Below are positions 3,095 through 10,899 of a stretch of 64,000 bases of DNA, in pieces. The DNA lies in the NCBI GenBank assembly GCA_964573135.1, contig CAZNIO010000002.1, positions 2,535 to 66,534 on the forward strand. Direction: 5' to 3'. Under the pieces are notes generated by a model. That model had not been told where the DNA came from. It ran no database searches and saw nothing but the letters and a program-made list of their open reading frames with translations. Source of the stretch: an uncultured Gammaproteobacteria bacterium. GTDB lineage: Bacteria > Patescibacteriota > Patescibacteriia > UBA2196 > GWA2-42-15. A program made the translations under genes and the position numbers. Each line of letters starts with the position of its first letter. Position 1 is the stretch's first letter.

Positions 3095-6000
3095 ATGCCT
3101 AAAAAAACAATTACTAAGAAAAAAATAGAAAAAGAAAAACCAGCCGCTGCCCCCAAAGCGCTGGCTTCTGTAAATCCAAGAGAAATTACAACAGAAATGA
3201 AAGAATCCTACCTGGATTACGCAATGAGCGTTATAGTTAGACGCGCCCTACCAGATGTACGTGATGGCTTAAAACCAGTTCATCGAAGAATTCTTTTTGC
3301 TATGTGGAATCTAGGACTAAAAAGCTCTGCAAAGTTTAGAAAATCAGCCACTGTAGTTGGTGAAGTACTTGGTAAGTATCATCCCCACGGAGATACTGCA
3401 GTTTATGACTCCATGGTGCGCATGGCGCAAGACTTCTCTCTTCGCTACCCGCTAGTACACGGGCAGGGCAATTTTGGTTGCTTTACTAAAGATACTAAGG
3501 TCAAATTAACTGACGGCAGAAATCTAACCTTTGGCGAATTAATTAAAGAAAACAAGTTAGGCAAAAAAAACTTTACCTATACGGTCAACTCGCTGGGGCT
3601 AATTGCAGTAGCTGAAATCAAAAAACCACGGCTCACTAAAAAAAATACTCCAATCATTAGGGTAATTCTAGACAATGGGGAAAAAATTAAATGTACTCCC
3701 AATCATAAATTCATGATGAAAGACGGTTCATATAAAGAGGCCGAAAACCTTAAACCGCAAGATTCACTAATGCCTTGTTATGAAAAAGTTTCAAAAAATA
3801 CAGATAGGCTCAACAGAAAAGGCTATACGCTAATATTTCAAAATAAAAAAAATGAGTGGATTCCAGCCCATCATTTAGCCGATAATTACAACTTAACTAA
3901 TAAAAAATATAACAAAAGTGCAGGTCGAGTAAGGCATCATTTAAATTTTGACAAACTTAACAACAATCCAAATAATATAGCAAGAATGCATTGGAAAGAG
4001 CACTGGCAAACACACTATAAAAATGCCTCTGCTCTGCATCAAGACGAAAATTATCGCAAAAAAATTGCCACAGGCAGAAAAAAATTCTGGGCAAATCCAG
4101 CCAACAGAGCCAGATACTCAAAAGCACTCTCCAAAAGAAACACGAAAAACTGGGAAGACCCAGTATACAGAGAAAAAATGACAATTTTCTTGAGCGAAAT
4201 CAATAAACAATACATCCAAGATCATCCGGAACGTCGACAAGAACTAAGCGAGCAAGCAACAAAAACTTTAAAACGCTTATGGCAAAATCCAGACTATCGC
4301 GCCATAATGCACGAAAAAATAATTAAAGGAAACAAAAATCACACCACTAACAAAACGGGGAAAGTCAAATTTATAAAAATCTGTAAAAAAGTTATTGGGA
4401 AATACTCTGTTATCAACGAAAATAATTATCTTGCAACAAGAAATAGAATTTATCCTTATGGCAAAGCGCCACTTTGGGAAACAGGATTAAGTAAATATTT
4501 TCAAAACGACTCAAATCTAATTCTTCAAGAAATTAACAAAAATCATAAGGTAATTAGAATAGAAAAAATTATCAAAAAAGAGGACGTATACGACCTAACT
4601 ATTGATAAAACACACAACTTCTGCTTAGCCGCTGGAATCTTTGTTCACAATTCCCTTGACGGAGATTCTGCTGCAGCTATGCGCTACTGCATCACTGGAG
4701 ATTCTTTGATTCTAACCGACAAAGGAATCTTACCTATCAAAAATATATCTTCAAAAAAAGAGGATAAAATAAAACTGAATATCCTCAACCATCAAGGCAA
4801 ACAAAAACCAGCTGTCAAATTTTTCAATTCCGGTAAACACAACATCTTCCATCTAAGTACAAACCTCAATTACCAAATAAAAGGATCTTCTAACCATCCG
4901 CTACTCACCTGGCAGCCAAACGAATTCGGAATACCGACCACTAAATGGAAATTACTTGAAGAAATAACTACTCAAGATCACGTATTAATCAACAGAAACT
5001 CCTCACTTTTCAGTAAAAATAACCCCAATTTGTCACAATATCATCCTCGCAATTTAAATAAAAAACATAAAACTAATATCCAGCTTCCCAAAACAATGAA
5101 TAAAGACATTGCTTTCTTGCTGGGTGCCCTAACTGCTGAGGGCAGCTTACATCAAAATCAAATCCTATTTAGCAATCAAGATCAAGTATTCTATAAAAAA
5201 GTTAGAGATATTATTCTAAAACAATTTAAAGGTACTAAGCTCTATGAGCATGATACCGTAAACGGCAACTGCAAAGAGCTTAGCCTCTATCATCAAAAAG
5301 CTGTTAAATTTCTACACAACATCGGATTATCTACTGGAAAATCTCACACAAAAGAAATTCCATTCTCTGTTCTCCTATCCCAAAAAGGAACAGTTAAATA
5401 CTTTCTGCAAGGACTTTTTGAAGGAGACGGCTCTGTGTCTTTCCAAAAAGACAAACGCCATGGGGGCAATTCAACGGAAGTCACCTATAACTCCAAAAGT
5501 GAAATCCTTATTAAACAATTAAAAACTGTTTTGCTTAATTTTGGTGTTATCACCAGCACTCCATATAAAGACAAAAGAAACGACTGCTACAAGCTCCTAG
5601 TTCATGGCCAAAATAATATTAATAATTTCTATACTCAAATCAACTTCTTCTCTAAACGCAAAAAACAAGAGCTTGCTCATGTCAAAGACTTGAACAAAAA
5701 CAGAATGAGCAAAACGGATTTTATCCCGTACCTCTCGAATTATCTAAAAAACAATTACTCAAATTCTTTTTTCAAAAAACATAACCTGGATCGCTATAAT
5801 AATTTACAAAAAAATTATGACAGAATATCAAAAATACTAAACAAAAGTGATTTAAAAATGATAGATTGGCTACTGCAAAACCACTATCTCTTTGACAAAG
5901 TCAAAACCATAACTAAGTCCAAAACCAAGGAAGAAGTATATTCAATTAAAGTTGATAGCAACTGCCACTCATTTATTGCCAACGGCTTCATAAATCACAA

Positions 6001-8089
6001 CACTGAAGCAAAACTCAAACCCCTAACCGACGAAATGCTACTTGATCTTGAAAAAAATACAGTTGATTTTGCATCTAATTATGACGACACTCAAAAAGAA
6101 CCTAAAGTCCTACCGGCTAATCTACCCAACCTGCTGGTTAACGGTACATTAGGTATTGCAGTCGGTATGGCTACCAATATCCCTCCTCATAATTTAAGTG
6201 AAATAATAGACGGAGTATGCCTCCTCATAGACAAACCCAATAGTGATACCGACGACCTCTTTCAATTTATCCAGGGACCCGACTTCCCAACTGGTGCCAT
6301 TATCTATAACAAAAACGATATCAAGCAAGCCTATGCTACTGGCAAAGGCTCTATTGTCATGCGTGCCGAAAACGAAATAGTTGAAGCCAAAGGTGGTGCA
6401 TTTCAAATAATAATATCATCCGTTCCTTACCAGGTTAATAAAGCTACTCTGCTTGAAAAAATAGCTGATTTAGTCAAAACCAAAAAAGTAGAAGGCATTA
6501 GGGATCTGCGTGACGAATCCTCAAAAGGCGACGTGCGCATAGTCATTGATCTTAAAAAAGATGCTTACCCTAAAAAAATATTAAATCAGCTATATAAACA
6601 CACTTCTCTGCAAACCTCCTTCCACGTTAATATGTTAGCTTTAGTCGACGGTATCCAACCAAGAGTCCTCACCCTAAAAATGATTCTTGAAGAATTTATC
6701 AAACACAGACAAGAAGTAGTCGAGCGTAGAACTAAATTTGAACTAGATAAAGCCAAGGCTCGTGCCCACGTACTTGAAGGCTTAATGCTGGCTTTAAATA
6801 AAATAGATGCCGTCATTAAAACAATCAAAGCCTCAAAAGACAGGGAAGAAGCCAAAAATAACCTTATAAAAAAATTCAAACTCACAGAAATCCAATCCAT
6901 CGCCATTCTAGAAATGAAACTTCAACAGCTAGCTAATTTAGAAAAACTAAAAATTGAAACTGAACTTAAAGAAAAGAAAAAAATAATCAAAGAATTAACT
7001 GAACTACTCAAAAGTCCAAAGAAAATTTTAGCACTTATCAAAAAAGAACTTCTAGCTGTCAAAGAAAAATTTGGTGATGAAAGAAAAACTAGAATTATCA
7101 AAGGCGCAGTTAATCAATTTTCACAAGAAGACCTTATCCCAGACGAAAATGTTATCATTGTCATTACAAAAGATGGATATATTAAACGTATGCCACTGGA
7201 TACATTCAAGGCCCAAGGCCGTGGCGGCAAAGGAGTAACTGGACTAGCCACAAAAGAAGAGGATACTGTTGAAGAATTCTTCACAACCTCTACTCATAAT
7301 AATCTTCTCTTCTTCACCACTCGTGGCAGAGTCTTTCAACTCAAAGCATACGAAATTCCAGTCGCATCGCGCATAGCCAAAGGCCAATCCATCGTTAATT
7401 TCCTGGAACTAGCACCAAACGAAAAAGTATCCTCTGTCTTCTCTTTAGGTCTGCTTGATAAGTATAAATATTTAGTAATGGTTACAACATCAGGTACAAT
7501 CAAAAAAGTAGAAATTTCTGCCTTCTCTAATGTGCGTCGCTCTGGACTAATTGCCCTAAAACTTAAAGGAGAAGATACCCTAGCCTGGGTAGAGCCATCA
7601 ACAGGGCAAGATGAAATAATGTTAACCACTACTCTTGGTCAAGCAATACGCTTTAAGGAAAAAGATCTACGTGCCATGGGTAGAGGAGCTGCCGGCGTAC
7701 GTGGTATCCGACTCAAAAAGGATAGCCAAGTATCAGGCATGGATATGATTAATAAAGAAAAAATAAAAGGCTATCTCTTTGCCTTATCCTCTAACGGATT
7801 TGGTAAAATAACAGCCATCAAAAACTACAAAACCCAAGGCCGTGGAGGCTCTGGTATTAAAACTCTAAAGGTTACAAATAAAACTGGCCCCCTAGCTTCA
7901 TCCTTTATAGTCGATCCTAAAAACTTACCCGAAGAAACAAAAGGTGACCTCATAATAATATCCGAAAAGGGTCAAGTCATCCGCCTACCTTTAAAATCAG
8001 TACCAACCCTGGGTCGTGACACCCAAGGCGTACGCCTCATGCGCCTAAAAAACGCAAATGACAGTGTGGCCAATGTAACCCTGGTCTAA
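3095..8089 (+). CDS. gyrA: DNA gyrase subunit A carrying two inteins. The extein is about 835 aa; the whole ORF is 1664 aa.
   Basis: N-terminus [50 protein letters not shown] (catalytic Tyr), then TEAKL...[18 protein letters not shown]. The C-terminal beta-pinwheel repeats are intact. Confidence 0.95.
3479..4651 (+). mobile_element. Intein 1 in gyrA (391 aa), inserted between GQGNFG and SLDGD. It starts with Cys and ends with HN, and the +1 residue is Ser. It has a putative HNH-like endonuclease domain (HHL...HH..N).
   Basis: The host protein is continuous when residues 129-519 are removed (HGQGNFG|[12 protein letters not shown] matches the E. coli GyrA consensus). It carries the canonical intein terminal residues C...HN/S. 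Confidence 0.8.
4688..6001 (+). mobile_element. Intein 2 in gyrA (438 aa), at the classical gyrA-a site right after the catalytic Tyr (AMRY|C...HN|TE). It contains a LAGLIDADG homing endonuclease domain.
   Basis: [13 protein letters not shown]...FINHN|TEAKL parallels the Mxe GyrA intein (CITGDALVAL...VSHN|TEARL). LAGLIDADG-like blocks [14 protein letters not shown] and [14 protein letters not shown] are present. Confidence 0.9.
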
Positions 8090-8754: not shown

Positions 8755-8831
8755 GGGCATATAGCTCAGTTGGTTAGAGCGCAACACTGATAATGTTGAG
8801 GTCCGTGGTTCAAATCCACGTATGCCCACCA
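8755..8831 (+). tRNA. tRNA-Ile (anticodon GAU), CCA encoded
   Basis: Manual cloverleaf: acceptor GGGCATA/TATGCCC, anticodon stem CAACA/TGTTG, loop CTGATAA, T-loop TTCAAAT. Confidence 0.9.
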
Positions 8832-8841
8832 TCAAAATCCT

Positions 8842-10065
8842 ATGCTCAGGAAAAAAACACACATTATAATAACAGTTATACTACTAGCCCTTTTTTTTAC
8901 GCCAATTTTTTGCCAAGCTTTTGAATATACATCCCTAGACCACTACACCCGCTATTTCTATAACCGCTACTCCAAGCACTTTGATAACTTTGGCCTAAAA
9001 TATGCAAGCCCCACCTATGGTATCCAAAAACTCAAAAATCCAGAAACCTCTCGTGAATGGATATCCCTTGCCTCATACTATAAATACAGAAGCATCCGAG
9101 GTGATATCAAGGCCAAACAAGCACTCAAAGACGCCGTCCATCAATCCTACCTAGCCAGCTTAAACAAATTGCCTCACGCTCAATCGTTTCAAGATGCTGA
9201 AAGCTATTTTCTAATACTTCAAGTATTTGAAAATGACCCAAACCTTTTTAACGAATTTGAACAAAAAAGAATAATTTACCAAATCAAAAAATATATCGAA
9301 CCAGGCATTAAGGCGAATGATACAGAAAATAGGAGCTTGGTATCAGCAGCTCATTGGCAATACATTGTCAATCTACTACATACCAAAAACATATTAAACC
9401 AAAGTCAAAAAGAATATTTTGATAAATTAATAAAAATAAAGATTGATACAGCTATTAATAGTTGCATCAACCAAGATTACTGGTATTTTGAAAATAATTG
9501 GAAAGATTTTTCACCTCACTATCATACAGTATCAGCCTTTATGCTAATGATCTATGGAGATCTAACCCAGCAAGACAAATACCTAGACATCTCCCAAGGA
9601 ATGTACTACAATATTAAAAAGGTGTCTTTCAAAAACGGTATGGTGGAAGCCCATCTTGGCAGAAGACCCCTAGGACTGGGAGCCCAGTTCTATCTTATGC
9701 AAGGACTACTTGGTAAATATTTTGATGACCCAGATTATAGTGTCTATCTGGCATATGCCAAAGGCCACAGATTCTTCTCAGATAAACAACACCCCGACCG
9801 CTTGGAATTCCACTCAACTATAGAAAATTCAGATCCTCAATTCCATGATGATTACGCATTTTCAGATAAAGCAGAGCTTGCCTTAACTATACCCAAATTA
9901 CAAAATGTAAATTTCAGTTCTAAATACTATTTTGACGACCCAATCCAACAATCAAGTGATGATAGTTATAATATAAAAAATACAGGTAATAAAATAATAT
10001 TTAATAAAATAAAAAACGTTCTTGGAAGCTATGGGAATTGGTCCCATATTTACAATTTAAAATAA
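8842..10065 (+). CDS. Hypothetical secreted protein (signal peptide)
   Basis: The N-terminus MLRKKTHIIITVILLALFFTPIFCQA resembles a signal peptide. No recognisable catalytic motif. Confidence 0.45.
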   Translation: MLRKKTHIIITVILLALFFTPIFCQAFEYTSLDHYTRYFYNRYSKHFDNFGLKYASPTYGIQKLKNPETSREWISLASYYKYRSIRGDIKAKQALKDAVHQSYLASLNKLPHAQSFQDAESYFLILQVFENDPNLFNEFEQKRIIYQIKKYIEPGIKANDTENRSLVSAAHWQYIVNLLHTKNILNQSQKEYFDKLIKIKIDTAINSCINQDYWYFENNWKDFSPHYHTVSAFMLMIYGDLTQQDKYLDISQGMYYNIKKVSFKNGMVEAHLGRRPLGLGAQFYLMQGLLGKYFDDPDYSVYLAYAKGHRFFSDKQHPDRLEFHSTIENSDPQFHDDYAFSDKAELALTIPKLQNVNFSSKYYFDDPIQQSSDDSYNIKNTGNKIIFNKIKNVLGSYGNWSHIYNLK

Positions 10066-10071
10066 TACCAT

Positions 10072-10384
10072 GCCGAGGTAGCTCAGTGGTAGAGCACAGG
10101 ACTGAATTTTCGGTCCATCACAAAGCAATTTGTGATCGCAAACTGGGTGAATTCGGGGAAACCTACGGTCATATGTATGACTATGGCAATCCCGAGCCAA
10201 GCTCTAGAGGGTATAAGTTCTAGAGAAGGTGTAGAGACTAACAGGTGAGTCCCAACAATAACCCTGTATAAGCGCCCAGCCCCTAATATTCAATTAGGGT
10301 GATGAGATAGTCCGATCCTAAAGGAAACTTTAGTTAACACACAGGAAAATCCTGGTGTCGAGAGTTCGATTCTCTCCCTCGGCA
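10072..10384 (+). tRNA. tRNA-Phe (anticodon GAA) interrupted by a group I intron. Exons are 10072..10103 and 10345..10384; no CCA is encoded.
   Basis: The exons join to GCCGAGGUAGCUCAGUGGUAGAGCACAGGACU|GAAAAUCCUGGUGUCGAGAGUUCGAUUCUCUCCCUCGGCA, a complete cloverleaf with close similarity to bacterial tRNA-Phe. The acceptor stem GCCGAGG/CCTCGGC pairs across the intron. Confidence 0.8.
10104..10344 (+). ncRNA. Group I self-splicing intron (241 nt) in the anticodon loop of tRNA-Phe, between U33 and G34
   Basis: The core closely resembles Azoarcus/cyanobacterial tRNA group I introns (GAATTCGGGGAAACCTACGG, TATGGCAATCCCGAGCCAAGC, GAAGGTGTAGAGACTAACAGGTGAG). P1 forms between exon GGACU and intron GGUCC with a U.G at the 5' splice site. 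The last intron nucleotide is G. Confidence 0.8.
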
Positions 10385-10899
10385 AATCGCGGGATGTGGT
10401 ATAATGGTAGTACGTATGCTTTGGGAGCATATAGCGGGAGTTCGATTCTCCCCATCCCGAATTTAAAACTCTGACTTTGCGTCAGGGTTTTAAAATACCC
10501 CAATAAAAAAGATGATGTACTATTTAATATACACCATCTTATAATCTTATTTCTTGCCCTCTTTTCTATCCAAGCCCAATTGCGCTCGTTATCTGCTTTA
10601 ATAATTTGTGGATAATGAGCGCAGACATCGGAATTTAATAAAACACTGGCTCGCATTTTATACTTATCCAATAAATCCATTATCCGCCAAAGTCCCACCC
10701 GCACACCATAATCTCGCCAGCCATAATTTAACGGATCTGGATCCAAATTGGCAGTGCCAGAAAAAATACTTGTGGCCGGCTTACCGAGCTCATAATCCTC
10801 AATATTCAATCCAATATAAACAGCGAACCCTTCCCCGTTCGGCCATTTAATTTTTGGCCGTTCAATGATAGGGCTATAATTAAAAAGTTCATTTTCCAT
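10330..10899 (-). pseudogene. 3'-truncated PuuE/polysaccharide-deacetylase-like gene. Only about 115 N-terminal residues are homologous; the reading frame then runs through the tRNA-Pro/Phe genes.
   Basis: ERPKIKWPNGEGFAVYIGLNIEDYE...YGVRVGLWRIMDLL...NSDVCAHYPQIIKA parallels the PuuE N-terminus (KWPG.ARIALSFVLNYEEGGE...YGSRAGVWRLL...NPEVIRA). The catalytic GHE..SHG segment is lost and the 3' part overlaps tRNAs. Confidence 0.45.
10390..10460 (+). tRNA. tRNA-Pro (anticodon UGG)
   Basis: C1-G72 acceptor (CGGGATG/CATCCCG), anticodon loop TTTGGGA with G37, T-arm GGGAG/TTCGATT/CTCCC. It starts 5 nt after tRNA-Phe. Confidence 0.85.

Follow-up and report, generated by a model that had tools for sequence, protein, structure and literature searches.

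The gyrA gene on contig CAZNIO010000002.1 (assembly GCA_964573135.1), within the 64,000-nt stretch of DNA analysed here (hereafter, the window), is interrupted by two long in-frame inserts separated by 12 codons. The question raised by this locus is what the inserts are: two self-splicing and still mobile inteins within one essential gene, inteins of which at least one has lost its endonuclease activity, or a trivial case such as an assembly artefact or a dead gene. The initial annotation of the window had proposed the first variant, with recent or ongoing mobility. We consider it very likely that the gene encodes two unrelated full-length class-1 inteins at neighbouring gyrA homing sites, both spliced from one precursor and each probably mobile.

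The gene (3095..8089, plus strand as all its parts below, stop codon included) is a single open reading frame (ORF) over 4,995 nt, without a stop or frameshift in 1664 codons, and encodes a precursor of 1664 amino acids (aa) and 189.7 kDa. The precursor matches DNA_topoisoIV (E 3e-146), six DNA_gyraseA_C blades, Intein_splicing in two stretches, and LAGLIDADG_3, and it scores above the cutoffs of the NCBIfam gyrA equivalog models. By alignment, the N-extein (3095..3478, aa 1-128) ends in GQGNFG, with Gly at position -1 of intein 1 (3479..4651, 391 aa). The extein linker between the inteins (4652..4687, 12 codons) includes the codon of the catalytic Tyr (TAC, 4685-4687), and intein 2 (4688..6001, 438 aa) starts immediately after it. 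The C-extein (6002..8086) begins with TEAKL and comprises the remainder of the GyrA breakage-reunion domain and the C-terminal beta-pinwheel. On the translated ORF, the coordinates and the 12-codon gap given in the initial annotation proved to be exact.

When aa 129-519 (nt 3479-4651) and aa 532-969 (nt 4688-6001) are excised in silico, a GyrA of 835 aa and 92.8 kDa remains. Its first 508 residues align without gaps to the GyrA proteins of Bacillus subtilis (4ddq, E 8e-179) and Staphylococcus aureus, and the gapless stretch runs through both junctions (...GNFGS[LVM]DGD.AAAMRYTEA...). As the alignment with solved GyrA structures is gapless over both junctions, both are exact. The intein-less gyrA sequence around the intein 2 site is ...GCTATGCGCTAC/ACTGAAGCA..., and over both sites it is ...GGGCAGGGCAATTTTGGT/TCCCTTGACGGAGATTCTGCTGCAGCTATGCGCTAC/ACTGAAGCA... 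(here and below, a slash marks an insertion point). Intein 1 presumably lies between the positions that correspond to Gly110 and Ser111 of Escherichia coli GyrA, and intein 2 directly follows the catalytic Tyr, which we take to be Tyr122 of the E. coli protein.

The same observations bear on the possibility that gyrA is a pseudogene, or that one of the inserts is incompetent for splicing, so that the locus yields no active GyrA. A second gyrA copy could reside elsewhere, as the analysis covered 64 kb of the genome, but nothing specific speaks in favour of a dead gene. The 1664-codon frame is intact, all splicing residues are in place (see below), and the extein is 60-67% identical to other GyrA cores from the candidate phyla radiation (CPR), with intact catalytic motifs. 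Thus, a dead gene is the least probable of the explanations that we considered, and an extremely improbable one.

Intein 1 (CFTKD...GIFVHN, at the GNFG/S site) has the residues of a class-1 intein: Cys1, T73-P-N-H76 in block B (CTPNH, 3692-3706), D372 in block F (4586-4621), FVHN with H390 and N391 in block G, and Ser at position +1. In an alignment of full-length homologues, C1, T73, H76, D372, H390 and N391 are invariant in all 17 sequences. Intein 1 scores 85.5 bits on Pfam Intein_splicing (PF14890), for which the cutoff is 35.8 bits, and both inteins pass the cutoffs of the NCBIfam models intein_Nterm and intein_Cterm (TIGR01445 and TIGR01443). The AlphaFold2 (AF2) model of intein 1 has a predicted local distance difference test score (pLDDT) of 85.4, and its top 30 or more Foldseek matches in the PDB are Hint domains of inteins or Hedgehog proteins, among them the NrdJ-1, DnaB, DnaE and RecA inteins, with E down to 6e-6. 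Judged by sequence models, intein 1 is confirmed as a bona fide class-1 intein, and a chance match is excluded by the model scores.

Intein 2 (CITGDSL...GFINHN, at the RY/T site) scores 60.4 bits on the same Pfam family. Its splicing residues are Cys1, S-S-N-H-P in block B (GSSNHPLL, 4883-4906), the terminal His-Asn of the C-terminal blocks F and G (5936-6001), and Thr at position +1. The best PDB match is the Mycobacterium xenopi GyrA (Mxe GyrA) intein (1am2, E 1.6e-17), and the two align over the N-terminal (CITGD...NHPLL...WKL) as well as the C-terminal lobe (VYS..VD..H.FI.NGF..HN). The NCBIfam model GyrA_w_intein (NF038098) spans intein 2 end to end (positions 117-537, E 8e-58). By homology, intein 2 belongs with the M. 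xenopi GyrA intein at the known catalytic-Tyr allele, as a full-length relative with a LAGLIDADG domain, and the assignment made in the initial annotation from the shared insertion point and termini holds. Since blocks A, B, F and G are found in both inserts, neither is an ordinary lineage-specific insertion.

From this anatomy we infer the following course of splicing. The gene would be translated as a single 190-kDa precursor, expected to be inactive since its catalytic centre is split by both inteins. Self-excision of each Hint domain would begin with an N-S acyl shift at Cys1. Trans-esterification would follow, to Ser +1 in intein 1 and to Thr +1 in intein 2, after which the terminal Asn would cyclise and an O-N shift would conclude the reaction. 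Between the inteins, the 12-residue linker would serve as the C-extein for intein 1 and as the N-extein for intein 2. The predicted products are GyrA of 92.8 kDa, intein 1 of 46.1 kDa and, by difference, intein 2 of about 51 kDa. The catalytic motif with its Tyr would be restored, and gyrase would become active, only after both splicing events.

Such an arrangement could also serve as a switch, if the inteins had been co-opted for post-translational control and their splicing were conditional on, for example, redox state or temperature. Conditional splicing is documented for RadA (PMC4513877) and DnaB (PMC6195587) inteins. Here, Cys1 is used by both inteins and each of them interrupts the catalytic centre, so that the precursor would have to be inactive. 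However, the sequence bears no specific sign of regulation, such as a second Cys placed for a disulphide trap, and the patchy presence and absence of the inteins among relatives (see below) speaks against a needed function. We therefore regard regulated splicing as improbable.

The two inteins differ in their candidate endonucleases. In intein 2, the LAGLIDADG homing-endonuclease core (5105..5437) is matched by LAGLIDADG_3 (PF14528) in two stretches, with 69.9 bits against a cutoff of 22.5, and by alignment contains motif 1 (5105-5149) and motif 2 (5396-5437, with LQGLFEGDG), each with its acidic residue, in agreement with the LAGLIDADG blocks noted initially. Across the family of intein 2, the invariant residues are C1, N-H-P, the motif 1 Glu (EG), EGDGSV and the terminal HN (EG and EGDGSV as assessed over 11 homologues), and all of them are present in the window copy.

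In intein 1, the insert within the Hint domain (intein aa 101-352, 3779..4534), judged by a PHROG match, alignment and AF2/Foldseek modelling, would comprise an endonuclease and a DNA-binding part. PHROG 7545, 'HNH endonuclease', matches insert residues 12-94 (E 8.4e-6). A profile search with the central domain against PDB sequences returned only noise (E about 0.6), and a fold search with the model of the whole intein returned Hint domains only; the insert was then modelled alone. This model (AF2, pLDDT 88.6) has two strands and then a helix at the HNH motif, and its top PDB match is I-HmuI, an HNH homing endonuclease of phage origin (1u3e, Foldseek probability 0.97, 97 columns), followed by Cas8-HNH domains (E 2-4). 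The HNH-like core (3926-4015) has the pattern HH...N...N...H...H, namely RHH(153/154)...NN(161/162)P.N(166)...H175...H179. Among the 17 intein 1 sequences, H154, N161, N162, N166, H175 and H179 are invariant and H153 nearly so, and H131 also belongs to the invariant or nearly invariant His and Asn residues of the insert. Taken together, profile, motif and model suggest, with moderate confidence, that intein 1 carries an I-HmuI-like HNH module, as had been surmised, and by the alignments of homologues the catalytic residues of both endonuclease domains are intact.

On the 3' side of the HNH-like core, intein 1 has three copies of a helical W-x-x-P-x-Y-R repeat (4088-4108, 4151-4171 and 4280-4300). 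The array is expanded in longer variants of the intein (449-528 aa): three copies are present in the 391-aa intein here and about 11 in the forms of 520-528 aa. Searches with Pfam and profiles matched no annotated family to the array. It probably binds DNA, and its varying copy number gives it the look of a modular, expandable element. The 520-528-aa forms are mostly from Omnitrophota; the longer forms include loci L064, L066 (WJOT01000078), L068, L070-L072, L076, L078 and L080 of the genome scan described below.

The base composition of the gene is uniform where it would be informative about origin. GC content at third codon positions (GC3) is 0.32 and 0.36 in the inteins and 0.32 in the extein. 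The inteins are lower in total GC (0.336 vs. 0.397), but with GC3 unchanged this reflects amino-acid content and not foreign origin, and we reject composition as a sign of recent transfer. The best matches of both extein and inteins (64-69%) lie in Magasanikbacteria, Doudnabacteria and Parcubacteria, and for this reason the host is probably a low-GC bacterium of the Patescibacteria (CPR). A look-up of the precursor's exact sequence in the assembly collection gave no record.

How common is this arrangement? In a genome scan with a single representative for each GTDB species, at least 306 loci encode a relative of intein 1, in Patescibacteria, DPANN archaea and Omnitrophota. The junctions were read at the best 80 of these at least 306 loci and were readable in 74, and at all 74 intein 1 occupies the same gyrA site. 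A second intein follows the catalytic Tyr in only two of the 74: L021, a Micrarchaeota metagenome-assembled genome (MAG), and L066, a MAG labelled Clostridia. Both ORFs are open through the two inteins, and that of L066 is complete. A protein search with intein 1 gave 102 matches from Patescibacteria, Nanoarchaeota, Woesearchaeota and Omnitrophica, most of them with a GyrA domain and GN[FW]G/C...HN/S junctions. Remoter relatives reside inside GyrB, RadA and RtcB, and mini-intein derivatives of 139-222 aa occur at the same gyrA site. Among the database proteins, P0019 and P0065 also have both inteins. One Omnitrophica protein (P0059) is already annotated as 'intein-containing DNA gyrase subunit A'.

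The relatives of intein 2 are distributed differently with respect to the upstream site. The nearest ones (50-65% identity) are GyrA fragments of Nanoarchaeota and Patescibacteria, and more distant ones (36-40%) come from Acidobacteria. In all relatives with a readable intein 1 site (n = 20), this site is empty (GN[FWMC]G-S). Hence most gyrA alleles hold just one of the two inteins, and the occupancy of the sites is patchy.

In metagenomes of the Joint Genome Institute (JGI), scanned for the exact pattern of the double junction (FVHN-S.DGD.....RY-C), we observed it on 29 contigs. Most of them encode ORFs of 1413-1812 aa, with an intein 1 of 139-526 aa and a LAGLIDADG intein 2 of 433-449 aa, and with a highest identity to the window of 68%, none of them is its source. 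The double gyrA allele is a minority yet recurrent state. The initial annotation had called the arrangement uncommon; this holds within gyrA (two of 74 intein 1 genomes) but not more broadly, as genes with several inteins are well known (PMC10643990) and the same arrangement is found on the 29 metagenome contigs.

Many of the intein-bearing gyrA homologues (L001-L080 and P0001-P0131) are partial, being cut off where the contig stops, and this is so in large assemblies as well. Assemblies would thus seem to break often at gyrA, possibly because intein presence and absence vary within populations. One protein (P0005, 648 aa, from a 197,624-bp ENA contig) has intein 1 and, after about 45 C-extein residues, an Arg/Gly/Pro-rich tail that looks out-of-frame; it may represent a frameshifted gyrA or a sequencing error.

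If intein content does vary within populations, as the partial homologues at contig ends would have it, the double allele in the window could be a chimera, in which reads of a strain with intein 1 only and a strain with intein 2 only were joined via the 36-bp linker. The ORF, however, is intact over its entire length, GC3 is uniform in exteins and inteins, and the k-mers commonly used in final assembly exceed the 36 bp of such an overlap. Moreover, the same architecture recurs on the 29 metagenome contigs and in two GTDB genomes, which come from other projects and assemblers and have very different sequences. An assembly artefact is thus highly improbable, although slightly less so than a dead gene.

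If both inteins are spliced, the remaining question is whether they move. Each would be a selfish DNA element. Its nuclease would be expected to cleave the site of that intein where the site is empty, and recombinational repair would then copy the intein in. Most likely, the double allele would have arisen when one intein invaded an allele already holding the other. As the sites are 36 bp apart, the recognition sequences may abut or overlap, and if both nucleases cut an allele with two empty sites at once, the outcome could be unproductive, as it is in MCM (PMC10643990).

The identities between alleles bear on the order of events. For intein 1 of the window, the closest sequences are those of single-intein alleles (L051 from Parcubacteria, 69%; L001, 68%; P0001, 67%), and the same is true of intein 2 (P0105, partial, 65%; P0103, 59%). 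The two double alleles from GTDB genomes are more distant: 55% for intein 1 and 53.5% for intein 2 in L021, and 51% and 37%, respectively, in L066. Since the inteins of the window are closer to those of single-intein than of double alleles, the double alleles seem to have been assembled several times independently. This pattern agrees with the conclusion drawn for haloarchaeal MCM from experiment and phylogeny, that double inteins arise via invasion of single-intein alleles and not by co-homing (PMC10643990).

We also compared the conservation of intein 1 with that of its host gene, using identity to the window over 570 residues of the extein core and over the whole intein. In archaeal-labelled hosts (among L016-L064), the mean identity is 53.6% for the extein and 54.5% for intein 1; in 20 of 28 hosts the intein is at least as similar as the extein, and the two values do not correlate. 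In bacterial hosts the identity is 60.4% for the extein and 56.1% for the intein, and the two are correlated (Spearman 0.68). The length of intein 1 is held at 391-394 aa across CPR bacteria and DPANN archaea. The conservation of intein 1, together with the intact nuclease motifs and patchy occupancy, favours either continuing horizontal movement or strong constraint, and the archaeal values hint at cross-domain transfer between CPR bacteria and DPANN archaea. On the intact motifs and the mismatch between intein and extein similarity, recent or ongoing mobility, as initially proposed, would be a reasonable inference.

The most serious alternative is that both inteins are spliced but at least one endonuclease is an inactive relic, the inteins being fixed and inherited vertically and the domains kept for folding or splicing. 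In the textbook homing cycle an endonuclease degenerates after fixation of its intein. Mini-derivatives of intein 1 at the same site show that the domain has been lost in some lineages, in bacterial hosts the similarity of intein 1 tracks that of the extein, and in some inteins splicing is known to depend on the endonuclease domain (PMC10643990). Vice versa, the His and Asn residues of intein 1 and the Glu and Asp residues of both LAGLIDADG motifs of intein 2 are invariant across distant hosts, the constant-length intein 1 is conserved like the GyrA catalytic core in both CPR and DPANN, its similarity is uncoupled from that of the extein in archaeal-labelled hosts, and the occupancy is patchy, mostly with one intein per allele. 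We consider the relic explanation possible but doubtful.

Several points weigh against the preferred reading of two spliced and mobile inteins. The block B of intein 2 has Ser in place of the canonical Thr, although Ser is likewise found in eight of ten aligned homologues. For the isolated intein 1 insert, Pfam gave no match to an endonuclease family, and none to HNH families up to E 10, and the I-HmuI fold match is weak in E-value (0.2). With a spacing of 36 bp and possibly overlapping recognition sites, the two nucleases may interfere with each other or be non-functional. Endonuclease motifs can be retained because they are needed for folding or splicing instead, and for both inteins splicing as well as cleavage are predicted from sequence and models.

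A farther-reaching reading, which we offer tentatively and would not call probable, is that the GNFG/S HNH intein is an undescribed and currently active allele moving between Patescibacteria (CPR) and DPANN archaea, and that the double alleles let an HNH and a LAGLIDADG endonuclease compete or cooperate 36 bp apart. If this were true, the double alleles would be a compact natural system for distinguishing co-homing from interference.

The surroundings of gyrA in the window (GC 0.356) are bacterial housekeeping genes, encoding an S1-domain protein, a metallo-beta-lactamase (MBL)-fold hydrolase, FtsK, RpoB, RpoC, PNPase, RNase Y and a Pif1-like helicase. A phmmer search with both inteins against all six-frame ORFs of the window revealed no further inteins, and rpoB and rpoC are intein-free. 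About 2 kb downstream of gyrA, a gene for tRNA-Phe(GAA) (10071-10385, plus strand) has its anticodon loop split by a group I intron (ARAGORN, intron mode; Rfam Intron_gpI at 10094-10334, 85 bits, E 3e-20), so that, within 5 kb, a self-splicing element of a second type accompanies the inteins; tRNA-Pro(UGG) follows 4 nt downstream (10390-10460). Between tRNA-Ile (8755-8831) and tRNA-Phe lies a 407-aa ORF (8842-10065, plus strand) with no Pfam match up to E 1e-4.

If the nucleases and splicing domains function as predicted, the locus would be an intact case in which two inteins, one HNH and one LAGLIDADG, interrupt an essential enzyme at its catalytic centre, 12 codons from each other, and hence a compact natural test case for the interaction of neighbouring homing endonucleases. 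The two inteins are uncharacterised and, with their native Gly(-1)/Ser(+1) and Tyr(-1)/Thr(+1) junctions, are candidate tools for protein engineering. The wider distribution is probably more interesting than the single locus, whose mechanism would be standard intein biology: the presence in gyrA of the same HNH intein, about as conserved as its host enzyme, in hundreds of genomes from CPR, DPANN and Omnitrophota suggests that inteins pass between ultra-small symbionts. Literature searches on a second gyrA insertion site, on double gyrA inteins and on inteins of CPR or DPANN gave no paper that describes the GNFG/S site or such a double allele; the coverage of these searches stopped short of the supplementary tables in Novikova et al. 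(PMC4760082), where gyrA sites are possibly listed. At the same time, the class into which intein 1 falls, inteins with an HNH module, is a known one, as are genes with several inteins. Public MAGs contain many examples of the intein 1 site and family, and the double architecture itself is found many times in public data.

Three known systems are close to this locus. Intein 2 shares with Mxe GyrA (1am2) and the endonuclease-containing mycobacterial GyrA inteins the insertion point, the termini (CITGD.../...NGF[IV]xHN) and homology. Mxe GyrA, however, is a 198-aa mini-intein of an actinobacterium that lacks an endonuclease, whereas intein 2, in a CPR-like bacterium, has 438 aa and a two-motif LAGLIDADG domain, and its block B has Ser-x-x-His instead of Thr-x-x-His.

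Intein 1 is comparable to I-HmuI, the best fold match of its central domain, with which the HH...N...N...H...H pattern would agree, and to HNH inteins, relatives of the entire intein 1 being found in GyrB (P0063 and P0068, 29-35% identity over the full length). The Synechocystis GyrB intein is said to have been the first intein reported with an HNH domain, by Dalgaard et al. in 1997. The putative nuclease of intein 1 differs from both I-HmuI and the HNH inteins in being missed by Pfam HNH, in being followed by the W-x-x-P-x-Y-R array, and in its position inside a Hint domain in GyrA at GNFG/S.

Finally, genes with several inteins are common in archaea (PMC10643990, Table 1), for example haloarchaeal MCM-a and MCM-d, and PolB with three inteins (PMC10643990), and a bacterial case is DnaB of Mycobacterium smegmatis with i1 and i2 (PMC6195587). 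Shared with them are independent inteins at nearby conserved sites of an essential DNA-metabolism gene, with endonucleases kept, and the double allele here likewise appears to be built from single-intein alleles and not to have spread as one unit. Unlike in MCM, PolB and DnaB, the host gene here is gyrA, the endonucleases belong to different families (HNH and LAGLIDADG), and the two sites are 12 codons (36 bp) apart.

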